Position numbers and translations under genes: made by a program. Positions 54,283 through 58,293 of a stretch of 64,000 nucleotides of DNA are shown here, piece by piece. This stretch comes from an uncultured bacterium (GTDB lineage Bacteria; Fidelibacterota; Marinisomatia; Marinisomatales; UBA1611). Location: positions 256,001-320,000 of the forward strand of contig CALSPG010000001.1 of NCBI GenBank assembly GCA_943788175.1, written 5' to 3'. The notes beneath the pieces were generated by a model that was not told where the DNA came from, did no database searches, and was given only the letters and a program-made list of their open reading frames with translations. How positions within the stretch are numbered: position 1 is the first letter of the stretch; every line of letters starts with the position of its first letter.

Positions 54283-56451
54283 CTATTTTAGCAATATCAT
54301 CTTTCTAGTTTCTCTAAAATCTCCTGCCTGAATCGTATAGATATACATTCCAGCAGCAACAGACTGACCTAAATTGTTGGTTGCATTCCATGTAACATGG
54401 TGATATCCAGCGCGTTGAATTTTTGATGACACTAGTGTACTTACTTTACGACCCATTACATCATAAATTGCTAAATAAACCATACCATCTGTAGGAAGCT
54501 CATATGATATAGACGTATTTGGATTAAAAGGATTAGGATACGCTGGATAAAGCGCAAATTTTCCAGGCAGGGTTTCTAAATTTGGGGTGGTTGACACTGT
54601 TGACACACGTGTCATCTTCCTCTCCATAGTCATATAAAAGCTATTGACGTTTTCCAATCCAGAAAGCATAGGTAATGGCATTGAGTCCGCCACCATTCGT
54701 ACGCAATCATCCATGCTACCATAATAGGCTGAATAATCTTCACATGGATATTCTTTAATACCAAGGATTAATGTATCAGCACTTTGTTGATAAAAATAAG
54801 AATCCCAATCACCTTCCTGGTAGTTGTAATCCTCAAAGTCAATTATATATAAAGAATCTGCGCTGGCATACCAATAAAAGTCTAAGGTATCAATCATTTC
54901 TTGGCCATCAATGTCCTCAAATGTGTTTATTTCATTTCCTGTCGAATCTTCAAAGAAATTCATATATGTAGGTTCTTCATTTTCCATTATATCTTCTAAA
55001 AACATTGAAGGAAGTTTTGTTTCAACACCAGCTAAGAGTTCAACCATTTTAGGGCCAATAGAACCATCTAAAGTAGCAACTACAGACCCGTTTGAATTAT
55101 AAAGGTTAAGGTAGTTAAATGTAACCATGTAATTATTTGTATCTACGCTTACATAATTAGAAAAATTATCCGCGTTCGATGAGAATATATCGGGTTCTTC
55201 ACCGAAAGGCGTAAGACCTTGCGCAAGCACTATTCCTTGATCTACGAAGACGGAAACCATGAAAGGATTATCTACTCCATCAATAGGAAATCCAAATATA
55301 AAAGCAAAAATATCATTAAAGTCAAAATTCATAATGATAAAATCAGGATCATCTGAGTCATCATTACCACTACCAGAACCACCAGCTAAATATTTTGCAG
55401 CGCATTGCCCATCACCATCTTCGCAATCCCAACAGACGCAAGTTTCATCGCCATTTTCAAATCCTATGTTACCATCATTATTAACATAAATTTGGTTCCA
55501 TCCTTCGCCATAAAAAACAAATTCTGATGACAATGCCTGGTATGAATAATCATCATCTTCTACTTCAATCTCATTTGAATACTCTCCTTCAAGATTGGAA
55601 ACAGTATCAGCACTAACAGAGTATTCAGAAAAATCATCATTTGGTATAAATGTTATCTTTTTATAGGCCATATCTAACTCATTTATTCCAGAAAAACCCT
55701 CAATTGGGACTAAAAAAGACTCGCCAGAAGATTCACTGAGATCTACGTTGGTAAATTCCCCATTACCATCTCCAATTCCTATGGCCAAACCGCCAGCAGC
55801 ATCAGCAACATTTGCGCCAGTTAAAAAGAGATCTTGGTAAGTAATTACTATCTTATTCGTACCATAAAAAAGCTGAATTTGAAATGTGTTTAATGCATCT
55901 GAATTATCATATAAAGGAACATCAATGAACGTAATATTTGCAGTTGTATCAGTTTCATCAAAATATATACTGCCACTAGTAGGATCTAAATCAGTTAAAT
56001 AGGCGCCAATTCGAGGTCCATAAGTATAGTCATCTTCATCGATATCGCGATTTTCTTCATCTCCTTCATCCCCTAGATTCATAAGGTCTCCATAAACTAA
56101 ATAAAATAGTTCAGTATCGTATTCACTATTAATAACACTAATACCTCCATTGGCAGTATCCATTCCCATTAAAGAAAGCATATTTGGAATATTTTGATTT
56201 GTTCCTACCGTTACAAATGTGCCAACTTCGGCAGGATCCATTTTCCATTGGCCAACTAAATTGTCCATATCCATAATAAAATTAGAACGCTCGCTTGAAT
56301 TAGATTGCGATCTAAATCTTTTTAAATCCTCAGGTGCATAAATGTTGTATTTATGTTGAAGCTTCTTTAGGTAATTATTTGTTTTATTCTGGAAGCCTTC
56401 GGCAGCAAAACATAATGAAAGAGAAAAAATAAATAAAATTGTTCTTTTCAT
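54283..56451 (-). CDS. Acidic secreted protein with nidogen-like insert and C-terminal sorting domain
   Basis: Probable start MKRTILF at 56451 with AAGGAG RBS; AYPNPFNP tail. Confidence 0.8.
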   Translation of the reverse strand: MKRTILFIFSLSLCFAAEGFQNKTNNYLKKLQHKYNIYAPEDLKRFRSQSNSSERSNFIMDMDNLVGQWKMDPAEVGTFVTVGTNQNIPNMLSLMGMDTANGGISVINSEYDTELFYLVYGDLMNLGDEGDEENRDIDEDDYTYGPRIGAYLTDLDPTSGSIYFDETDTTANITFIDVPLYDNSDALNTFQIQLFYGTNKIVITYQDLFLTGANVADAAGGLAIGIGDGNGEFTNVDLSESSGESFLVPIEGFSGINELDMAYKKITFIPNDDFSEYSVSADTVSNLEGEYSNEIEVEDDDYSYQALSSEFVFYGEGWNQIYVNNDGNIGFENGDETCVCWDCEDGDGQCAAKYLAGGSGSGNDDSDDPDFIIMNFDFNDIFAFIFGFPIDGVDNPFMVSVFVDQGIVLAQGLTPFGEEPDIFSSNADNFSNYVSVDTNNYMVTFNYLNLYNSNGSVVATLDGSIGPKMVELLAGVETKLPSMFLEDIMENEEPTYMNFFEDSTGNEINTFEDIDGQEMIDTLDFYWYASADSLYIIDFEDYNYQEGDWDSYFYQQSADTLILGIKEYPCEDYSAYYGSMDDCVRMVADSMPLPMLSGLENVNSFYMTMERKMTRVSTVSTTPNLETLPGKFALYPAYPNPFNPNTSISYELPTDGMVYLAIYDVMGRKVSTLVSSKIQRAGYHHVTWNATNNLGQSVAAGMYIYTIQAGDFRETRKMILLK

Positions 56452-56655
56452 AATTAAGACTCCTTGTAGTTTTTTAACTAATTGATAAGACATTTAAAAT
56501 TAGGGATATAGTATAGATTTATTATAATAATTATTGAGTTTATTTTTCGACATATAGAGCTAAAAGAATTACTAATAAACTTTATCAAACGGCTGAGAAA
56601 AGCTAGTGTGGTGCTCATAAAATAAAGTAGAGAACTATAAAAACCAGTATATATA

Positions 56656-56771
56656 AAACTATGAAATTTAGGTATAAAGCAAAAAACCCCACTAAAAGTG
56701 AGGTTTCTCGTCGCGTACCCGGGGCCGGACTCGAACCGGCACGGTATTGCTACCAACGGATTTTAAGTCCG
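56656..56771 (-). repeat. att-like direct repeat: 3' part of tRNA-Leu plus terminator
   Basis: Near-identical to 58053..58168 (offset 1397 bp); identity stops at the 5' side of the anticodon stem. Confidence 0.93.
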
Positions 56772-56908
56772 CTTACGAGATTGTCGTGAAAGGCACTTTT
56801 TGTACAACACTGTACAACAAATTACGAGGTTAGTTCTCTCATCACCACCTGGCATGAGAAGTGCCATATGAAATTTTCTTAAGCGCAAAATGATTTTTAT
56901 AAATGATA

Positions 56909-57867
56909 TTACCATGATATAACAACTAGTCCGTTGCCTTCTCTACCTGTCATAGTGTACCTCCATCTGGGTCTGGCATAGTATGCGTTTCCTGCTATAC
57001 TCTGATCCGCATTAGATACTCCTCCAACATAACCTGAACCGCCGCCGCCACCGCCACCATCAGCATCCACCAGCCGCCACCACCATAATAGCCACCTCCT
57101 CCTGCGCCACCATCCAGCAGATTACCTCTAGTAGCTGTTTGATTTCCTCCTAGTGCCAAGTGAACCTGCCTTCTTGAATCACAACCGTCACTGTTGCATA
57201 CCAACTGCGCACCACCTGCTGATTGCGTCCCACCACCGCCACCAGTTCCCGATACCATTGCTCCTCCTAGGGTCACCATTACCGCCAGTTAATGCTTCCA
57301 CCTCCATAGCCTCCATGCAATGCATAAGAAATGTATCCAAGCACTTCCACCGCCTCCACCGGAGCTACAATGACTACGATTTGTGAAAGCATTACCTCCA
57401 ACTGGAACGAACATCAGCTTGCGCCTCCACCGGACTTCCAGCATATGCACTCAGTTTTAGTATGATCCTCCACCATTGAATCCTCCGTTAACCATAGTAC
57501 AAGACCATCCAGATGATTTCCTACATCTGATCCGGATGAATCGCCTTGTCCTCCTACATAGACATAGAGAAGGGTTTCTCCTTGATGTTACGTTTAAAGT
57601 CTCCAGTTGCGTATGCCTCCTTTGCCTGCACCCCAACTACGAATAACTAGTTACATTACCTCCTCTGCCCACCCCATAGCCTTAATTGTAATTGTGCTTA
57701 CACCAGACGGTACGGTAAAAGTTTGTTGTGAGCCAGTGTAGCTAAAAGTCTGGGAACCTGATGAGCTAACTGATGTGTGTGGCTTATGTGCGCCATGAAA
57801 TGATGGCAATGCTATTTGAGCATTTATAAAATTTAATAATAGCAATTAGATAAATATAAATTTTCAC
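56909..57867 (-). pseudogene. Secreted glycine-rich protein, many frameshifts
   Basis: Fragments: signal peptide + NAQIALPSFHGAHKPH, QTFSYTGSQQTFTVPSGVSTITIKA, GGGGGYYGGG, ending GNGLVVISW*. Confidence 0.7.
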
Positions 57868-58076
57868 ATATGAAATTATAAAAGAATAGTTTCGTAATAC
57901 GATATTAGTTTCAATTTTTGAGCAACGTGCAACAAACAACCAAGTACATGATTCACTTACTAGCATTATTTCAAATAACTAAAGTGTTGTACAAAAAAAT
58001 ACATGTACAACATTGTACAACACTTATATTCCATAATATGCCATAATATGCCAAACTATGAAATTTAGCTATATAG

Positions 58077-58104
58077 CAAAAAACCCCACTAAAAGTGAGG
58101 TTTC
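58077..58104 (-). terminator. Terminator of the tRNA operon (duplicated at ~56680-56707)
   Basis: Minus strand AAACCTCAC-tttta-GTGGGGTTTTTTG. Confidence 0.75.
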
Positions 58105-58112
58105 TCGTCGTG

Positions 58113-58196
58113 TACCCGGGGCCGGACTCGAACCGGCACGGTATTGCTACCAACGGATTTTAAGTCCGTAGTGTCTACCAATTCCACCACCCAGGC
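58113..58196 (-). tRNA. tRNA-Leu (anticodon TAA)
   Basis: GCCTGGG/CCCGGGT acceptor stem, ACGGA-CTTAAAA-TCCGT anticodon arm, long variable arm, GGTTCGAGTCC T-loop. Confidence 0.96.
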
Positions 58197-58219
58197 AATA
58201 AAATTTCAAAAACATAATG

Positions 58220-58293
58220 AGGCGTCGGCCGGATTCGAACCGGCGAATAACGGTTTTGCAAACCGGTCCCTTAAACCACTTGGGTACGACGCC
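58220..58293 (-). tRNA. tRNA-Cys (anticodon GCA)
   Basis: GGCGTCG/CGACGCC acceptor stem, CGGT-TTGCAAA-ACCG anticodon arm, GGTTCGAATCC, U discriminator. Confidence 0.93.

Follow-up and report, generated by a model that had tools for sequence, protein, structure and literature searches.

The DNA analyzed here (the window) is a 64,000-nucleotide stretch of contig C1 of the genome of an uncultured bacterium of the order Marinisomatales (G000; 2.27 Mb in 12 contigs, 92% complete). It contains, next to a tRNA-Leu(taa) gene, a 1269-bp insert which an initial annotation had taken for a single-gene cassette mobilized in trans and comparable to an integron cassette; both ends of this insert can be traced to a temperate tailed phage. 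The intact tRNA-Leu(taa) gene occupies positions 58112–58196 on the minus strand and its upstream partner, tRNA-Cys(gca), lies at 58219–58293 on the same strand, as identified by ARAGORN and Rfam; the pair is present in most of the relatives searched. The repeat finder located a direct repeat of 128 nt at 56644–56771 and 58041–58168 (94% identity, spacing 1397 nt), which confirms in a slightly longer form the near-identical repeat of about 116 bp described initially; the 116-nt core at 56656–56771 and the tRNA-side copy share 97% identity. Positions 56772–58040, between the two copies, are unique DNA, single-copy in the genome and, at 1269 bp, as short as had been claimed. Neither an open recombinase gene within the insert nor an inverted repeat at its ends was found.

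The repeat consists of the 3' part of the tRNA gene followed by its terminator. The tRNA positions 29–85, beginning at the second anticodon-stem base and reaching the 3' end, are identical in both copies (57/57 bases), and the repeat continues for about 70 nt downstream of the tRNA, where a hairpin followed by a U run takes the same fold in both copies. The hairpin was not called by a simple consensus terminator scan; its predicted folding energy of −17.1 kcal/mol (z −4.8 and −4.7 for the two copies) supports the presence of a terminator downstream of tRNA-Leu. The distal copy (56644–56771, minus strand), the core of attL, combines the displaced host terminator hairpin with the last 57 nt of tRNA-Leu (56715–56771), and the variants common to the distal copies of G000 and its sister species (G001) are missing from the tRNA-side copies. 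The tRNA-side copy (58041–58168, minus strand), the core of attR, is phage-derived, being 96% identical to the phage contig L127 described below, and it supplies the working tRNA with its terminator and its 3' 57 nt. Because the tRNA-side copy resembles the phage copies, the restoration of the tRNA gene by element-borne sequence, as proposed initially, holds. The crossover in the anticodon stem-loop was likewise borne out: identity between the intact tRNA gene and the distal copy stops at 58168/58169, which bounds the crossover on its 5' side.

Inside the repeats lie two segments corresponding to the arms of a phage attachment site. The P' arm (56772–56860) carries two TGTACAACA boxes at 56801–56809 and 56811–56819, 10 bp apart, and the P arm (57983–58040), defined by alignments with the phage, consists of an inverted box (57985–57993), an A run, two direct boxes (58004–58012 and 58014–58022) and then CCATAATATGCC repeats. 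Six copies of the motif stand in the window, where 0.48 would be expected, which bears out the boxes as real repeats at the element: five of the six copies are inside it (two in the P' arm, three in the P arm). Genome-wide 15 copies were counted, with no cluster other than the five at the element.

The 22-mer taken from the P' arm at the left end matched six metagenome contigs and four viral contigs. Phage genes were found beside an attP-type junction in four of the six metagenome contigs and in all four viral contigs; the other two matches, L122 (the element in a related host) and L121, are taken up below. The junction has the order P arm, terminator and tRNA-Leu half, P' arm. On one side of it lie a tyrosine integrase gene of 370–372 codons and a Cro/C1-type regulator, on the other side a tape-measure gene along with tail and further structural genes, so that in the phages the tRNA-Leu half, with arm boxes to either side of it, lies between the integrase gene and a tail gene. 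The 370-aa open reading frame (ORF) beside attP (L126 homologue) scored 30.1 bits with PF00589 (cut-off 27.1 bits) and a 788-aa phage ORF matched the tape-measure family TMP_3. A search with the integrase of L127 returned nine loci, four of them with the exact 57-nt tRNA-Leu half, and added three contigs, bringing the phage family to 11 contig records in public metagenome and viral collections (IMG/VR among them), some of which are possibly one sequence present in two collections.

Remnants of both genes that border attP in the phage were recognized in the insert. In L127 the integrase gene (L127:2530–3648) lies beside attP and its product ends in AEQRATNNQVHDSLTNIISNN, the stop codon immediately preceding the boxes; across attP, a 255-aa tail-gene ORF (L127:3886–4653) ends in DIFSCQVVMRELTS. 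At 57908–57982 (plus strand) the insert keeps the last 24 codons and the stop codon of the integrase gene, with clear homology from EQRATNNQVHDSLTSIISNN onward (57920–57982); the remnant amounts to about 21–24 codons. The tblastn alignment of residues 349–372 of the L127 integrase to 57908–57979 (87.5% identity, E 8.5e-6) was the sole significant match in the genome, and at the DNA level the remnant is 96.8% identical to L127 over 63 nt. At the opposite end, an alignment with the phage revealed the last 12 codons and the stop codon of the tail gene at 56822–56860 (minus strand), encoding FSCQVVMRELTS. Beyond these points, at about 57908 and 56860, phage homology ends; no whole phage gene is left in the insert, no other parts of the phage were found in the 92%-complete genome, and the only L127-type integrase sequence in G000 is this remnant. 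Among 53 other genomes searched for the L127-integrase family, a relative was present in one, at 37% identity.

Because phage homology stops at the integrase and tail-gene remnants, the insert reads, on these alignments, as the two ends of a prophage whose body is gone, with a GRD gene and its upstream region apparently standing where the body was. Each end shows homology to the attP of an integrase-encoding phage, residual phage coding sequence remains inside, and direct repeats holding the 3' part of the target tRNA flank the whole, which assigns the insert to the prophage remnants at tRNA genes. The initial annotation was right about the lack of an integrase gene and about the attachment-site bounds. 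It had also named a larger integrase-bearing island in relatives as the finding that would speak against a cassette, and the temperate phage whose attP matches both ends is such a find. Of its description of one cargo gene without a recombinase, the second half stands as far as open genes are concerned; the cargo proved to be broken and the 24-codon integrase remnant had been overlooked.

The interior of the insert is occupied by what is probably a gene for an ALK/LTK GRD-type glycine-rich secreted protein (56909–57875, minus strand), broken in this assembly. It is represented by short ORFs in three frames, the longest of 94 codons, and crossing 56909–57875 free of stops requires at least eight frame switches (mean 12.7, range 6–19 in shuffled sequence). 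The counterparts are intact in G001 (321 aa; PF12810, ALK_LTK_GRD, E 8.6e-25 and 88.6 bits over nearly the whole model) and in the related metagenome contig L122 (289 aa; E 3.9e-31, 109.3 bits), the cut-off being 24.5 bits. The fragments in the window matched no Pfam family, and the genome-wide PF12810 search gave no match at E ≤ 0.001. The homology of the window copy is instead indicated by pieces aligned by tblastn with G001, which are 33–73% identical (35–73% for those with E ≤ 1e-7), and by a DNA identity with L122 of about 89% at the 5' end, the C-terminus and the 3' untranslated stretch. The middle part aligns poorly or not at all among the three.

The GRD protein bears a signal peptide and its gene is of the host type. 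High G+C content (up to 53.5% in the insert against about 33% in the flanks) was set aside as a sign of foreign origin, glycine codons being its simplest and presumably its actual cause (the intact homologues contain approximately 21–31% glycine). An origin of GRD as a phage gene was also rejected: no homologue was present in the examined parts of the phage loci L123–L139, and the nine GRD-bearing viral loci share no protein with the phage and carry no tRNA piece. A further 315-aa GRD gene was noted directly upstream of tRNA-Val(gac) in another genome (L073, G007:C166:1472–3921), on a contig that ends 5 nt past the gene start.

The same element occurs in two other lineages. In G001 it is distributed over two contigs that overlap by 141 exact bases, with flanks approximately 89–90% identical to the window, and in L122, from a related host, the right flank is 91.5% identical. 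G000, G001 and L122 have in common the junction of the integrase remnant with the GRD upstream region, and each carries a remnant of L127 type. As far as sequence comparison goes, this shared inner junction points to one origin. The integrase remnant of the window is 94.6% identical to that of G001 and 95.9% to that of L122; for the 5' end of the GRD gene with its promoter the values are 80.8% and 88.9%, and for the flanks 88.7% (left) and 90.3% (right) with G001 and 91.5% (right) with L122. Identity to the sister lineages is thus roughly as high in the inner segments as in the flanks, and the element looks vertically inherited.

The box segments behave differently from the rest of the element, being discordant: they match three different present-day phage variants in the three lineages. 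The P' arm of the window is 98.9% identical to phage L127 over 89 nt and 84% to G001 (by another measure, 99% to L123/L127 vs. 76% to G001), and the boxes of its P arm are 96.2% identical to L127 and 79% to G001, with no match in L122. The P arm of L122 is 91% identical to phage L132, and the P' boxes of G001 are those of phage L133. The phages L123, L127 and L129 carry the boxes of the window (for L129 the comparison covers the P' arm), L132 and L138 carry TGTACCTAA and L133 carries TGTAACTAA; the integrases of L132, L133 and L138 are 93–94% identical to that of L127, and their boxes differ in both arms. The more distant phages L124–L126, L128 and L130 carry TGTCACAA and TGTAACAA. The position of the boxes, their 10-bp phasing, their presence in both arms and their co-variation across phage variants fit predicted arm-type integrase-binding sites, and local phage variants appear to have overwritten the arms of the scar. 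In the IMG/VR contigs L131, L132, L133 and L138 the series TGTACAACA, TGTACCTAA, TGTAACTAA follows closely on the integrase stop codon, beside an unchanged tRNA core, which looks like a set of natural arm-specificity switches.

Taken together, we consider it probable that the insert is the collapsed remnant of a temperate phage at tRNA-Leu(taa), inherited vertically, with its arms overwritten afterwards. The order of events that we infer starts with a temperate tailed phage, which, in a common ancestor of this species, G001 and the L122 lineage, would have integrated into tRNA-Leu(taa) by a crossover at the anticodon stem-loop region, catalyzed by a tyrosine integrase. The whole phage body would then have been replaced by one host-type GRD gene, both hybrid attachment sites being kept complete, and the scar would have passed on vertically, the GRD gene decaying in the lineage represented by this assembly. 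In each lineage the box segments may have been overwritten by the arms of the locally circulating phage variant, most likely through repeated lysogeny followed by loss. By the likely route, a phage would integrate at one core and be lost by recombination between its integrase or tail-gene end and the matching remnant.

A second GRD unit was discovered in G001 at tRNA-Ser(gga) (L071:1037–2573, from G001:C233). It is bounded by 61-nt repeats with a spacing of 1448 nt and contains one open GRD gene of 337 codons; each end of the unit has paired GGTCCC boxes (GGTCCCAGAAT twice; GGTCCCAAAAT and GGTCACAAAG). G000 has a precise empty site at this tRNA (G000:C6:82218–82278): the flanks of G001 align to C6:81181–82278 and C6:82218–83232 and overlap by exactly the 61 nt of the repeat. 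This could reflect a gain in G001 or a loss in G000 by recombination between the repeats. No parent phage of the Ser unit was encountered, its three exact patterns being unmatched in the viral contigs, and no integrase remnant was recognized in it (all tblastn matches with E > 0.8). Different cargo was seen in L121:1–4374, in which the Leu P' arm and the tail-gene remnant are followed by a gene of 1303 codons, whose product is a type-IX-secreted M43-protease-like protein, and then by tRNA-Leu. Hardly any P arm is left in it, with neither P-arm boxes nor integrase remnant. As the contig begins and ends within the repeat, L121 may be mis-joined, and we treat it as no more than a lead.

Signs of movement were looked for at the Leu site itself, and none was seen. 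Seventeen regions from 16 relatives hold tRNA-Leu(taa) with 2.8–12.3 kb of downstream sequence, and none contains a second partial tRNA-Leu copy; of the 20 regions fetched, three had been left out, two for having no tRNA-Leu(taa) and one for having no more than about 0.1 kb downstream. Nor are the arms present in 28 shorter relative loci (L011–L038), and in G002, a member of the same genus with flanks approximately 75% identical, the tRNA and terminator are followed by an unrelated gene. A partial copy of the tRNA-Leu(taa) 3' end (36 nt at 89%, or 25 nt at 100%) was noted at a contig start in a relative of a different genus, the full gene being about 310 nt away (L021:103–138, from G029:C107).

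Public short-read contigs from four runs of four studies (X1, X2, X4, X7) were also inspected. No mini-circle junction was seen in them, which leaves the circular form suggested initially (58168 joined to 56772) without a trace in the four runs, and the joint 56771→58169, expected of an empty site, was not among the joints listed, contigs being unable to exclude rare empty sites. Within the species neither an empty Leu site nor a tandem array was observed, both of which had been anticipated. A joint 56847→57700 in X4 stems from a G001-like variant. The middle of the GRD gene (about 56897–57658) has no cover in X1 and X2 and only short divergent pieces in X4 and X7, and is uninformative on absence or variability. 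In metagenomes the attP-type junction lies in full phage genomes. A tyrosine integrase near the boxes, also anticipated, was not found in the genome either: G000 has four tyrosine-recombinase loci with five PF00589 matches (two Xer-type, one of them split, a 308-aa integrase at tRNA-Pro and one broken gene), none of them on C1 and none near TGTACAACA boxes. The element may nevertheless be mobilized in trans by a phage integrase.

Several observations weigh against a passive phage scar. The Ser unit of G001, with its empty site in G000, is a second one-gene GRD element at a tRNA gene, and it would be odd for two deletion remnants to have ended up by chance with one gene of this type each; nor does such a history account for the entry of GRD into the scar. 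With a P' arm 99% identical to that of a present-day phage and all five boxes intact, the insert fits a still-used site as well as a passive scar. Moreover, the GRD gene may not be truly dead, part of its breakage being a possible assembly error. An extra base at 57840 hints at such an error: it is absent from near-identical contigs in all four public runs, from G001 and from L122, and without it the signal peptide is in frame with the rest of the N-terminus. The Xer-type recombinase gene at G000:C6:193261–194314, split by one poly-A frameshift and a single frame of 351–357 codons in three relatives, hints at homopolymer indel errors in the assembly as well. What counts against assembly error is that long public contig pieces covering the flanks, about 1.0–1.2 kb each, match the window without any gap.

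An active, non-autonomous element, near to what was proposed initially, is an alternative that we regard as unlikely on balance. GRD units of 1.1–1.4 kb, as satellite-like mini-elements, would have arisen once from a phage by internal deletion and would still be integrated and excised in trans by the integrase of a helper phage, or carried in cis as co-integrates; the arms would have to match the helper, which would explain the co-variation of the boxes. Both attachment sites are complete and 96–99% identical to those of present-day phages, and the three element lineages have three box types, each of which is found in a phage variant whose integrase is 93–94% identical to that of L127. The twin at tRNA-Ser(gga) and its precise empty site agree with mobility, as does L121, in which a different single secreted-protein gene stands beside the same P' arm, and the tRNA-Pro array described below demonstrates that att-bounded units lacking an integrase can pile up beside an integrase gene. 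On the other side stand the same inner junction in three lineages with an identity that tracks the host flanks, the lack of GRD homologues in the examined parts of the phage loci, the GRD-bearing viral loci being unrelated to this phage, and the results at the Leu site, namely no empty-site joint in four runs and no second partial tRNA copy in 17 regions. The searches turned up no parent phage for the Ser element, and its empty site could equally be a loss by recombination of the 61-nt repeats. The family swapping single secreted-protein genes imagined in the initial annotation gains something from the Ser twin with its empty site and from the other cargo in L121; at tRNA-Leu no integron-like system was present.

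A more specific form of the mobile alternative sees the one-gene GRD units as phage-dependent mini-elements, each made up of a minimal attP fragment and a fast-evolving secreted-protein gene, moved or carried by the integrase of a matching helper phage which keeps the boxes in step. We find it doubtful. If it were true, temperate phages would spread genes for variable surface or secreted proteins among uncultivated marine bacteria without carrying them, and the mini-element would be a very small phage-dependent element.

An integrative island of non-phage origin, whether an integrative and conjugative element (ICE), an integrative and mobilizable element (IME) or a tycheposon-like element, could in principle have left a similar remnant, and other tRNA islands do occur in the genome: att-bounded insertions at tRNA-Pro, Val, Asp and Arg come with whole or broken island-type integrases. 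The arms of the Leu insert, in turn, match contigs encoding a tape-measure protein, tail genes and a Cro/C1-type regulator, and between the phage integrase and the island integrase of G000 the identity reaches only 28% over 107 residues. This origin is therefore highly improbable. An assembly artefact, as considered initially, or a local duplication without any link to a mobile element is suggested by a repeat longer than short-read k-mers at which public short-read contigs break, yet it is scarcely credible given the same structure in G001 and L122, a 115-nt contig from an independent run (X2) that bridges the left junction (56742–56856) without differences, and the match of both ends to the phage attP.

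Campbell-type integration leaves attL and attR, each holding part of the tRNA. The insert conforms to a defective prophage remnant at a tRNA in having both sites with their tRNA parts, truncated phage genes, and an identified parent phage with matching attP and integrase. It departs from one in its extreme reduction, with no whole phage gene in 1.27 kb, in its non-phage interior, in the retention of all boxes and in arms that match different present-day phage variants in each host lineage. The extreme reduction, the complete arms tracking present-day phages and the recurring GRD cargo are its unusual traits.

Other systems share some of these features. Cis-mobilizable elements (CIMEs) also have attL and attR without genes for integration or transfer and can in principle be excised or moved with an incoming element; they are described as decayed ICEs or IMEs of Firmicutes moved by conjugation, whereas the insert derives from a tailed phage, and no composite element of the CIME type was seen at the tRNA-Leu site. 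A phage satellite resembling the phage-inducible chromosomal islands (PICI-like) was dismissed: there is only one non-phage gene in 1.27 kb, with no integrase, replication or packaging-hijack genes of its own. With an integron cassette, the system invoked initially, the insert has in common that it is a single-gene unit lacking its own recombinase at a recombination site. The comparison did not survive, as no attC, attI, integron integrase or array exists at the locus and the bounds at both ends are phage-type attL/attR with arm boxes.

For the Prochlorococcus tycheposons, the available part of the report describes tRNA genes as integration hot spots in a streamlined marine genome, partial tRNA copies as marks of old integrations and islands with degenerate remnants beside such copies (bioRxiv 10.1101/2020.12.28.424599). 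Tycheposons are defined there by an integrase, and most have a replication module (bioRxiv 10.1101/2020.12.28.424599); the insert has neither, apart from the 24-codon integrase remnant, and its parent is a tailed phage. Podoviruses have been reported from single cells, with no prophage in the available part of that account (PMC4611503).

The phage-scar history replaces the tempting reading of a "tRNA integron" with one that can be checked, the parent phage being named by contig. It also links a family of uncultivated viral contigs to a host lineage and to an exact attachment site by a 57-nt exact tRNA match and a host-like terminator. The integrases that are 93–94% identical and have different arm boxes (TGTACAACA, TGTACCTAA, TGTAACTAA) offer material for studies on the evolution of arm specificity.

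The tRNA insertions in G000 as a whole resemble the Prochlorococcus pattern, att-bounded insertions being found at no fewer than five of the 36 tRNA genes, one of them as a tandem array. GGAGGACAC-type boxes mark either end of the 10-kb insert at tRNA-Val(tac) (G000:C5:326504–336415), which contains a truncated integrase-like ORF; beside its partial tRNA copy lies an ORF of 267 aa that has the tyrosine-recombinase-like motif HSLRHTYAVRR and was missed by PF00589. The 2.1-kb insert at tRNA-Asp(gtc) (G000:C6:296005–298102) has a 29-nt partial tRNA copy, a G+C content of 49% vs. 33% for the genome and an ABC-transporter gene split over two frames. For tRNA-Arg(ccg), the partial copy is on a different contig, with a broken integrase gene about 10 kb away. 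At tRNA-Pro(tgg) (G000:C8:7401–27526, partly L062), six partial tRNA-Pro copies come after the gene for a 308-aa integrase (PF13102 and PF00589). Every copy has its terminator and CACTGG-type boxes, and the copies bound integrase-less units of 1.5–7.8 kb. The end of contig C7 (G000:C7:407050–410257) repeats C8:8351–10595 at 99.5% with an extra block of about 900 bp, which could be strain variation or a real duplication. In the window, the product of the left neighbor of the insert (54283–56493) has 736 aa and a C-terminal sorting domain for type-IX secretion (Por_Secre_tail, FlgD_ig), and its C-terminal tail, ...TKKMILLK, also ends the products of many tRNA-island genes in G000.

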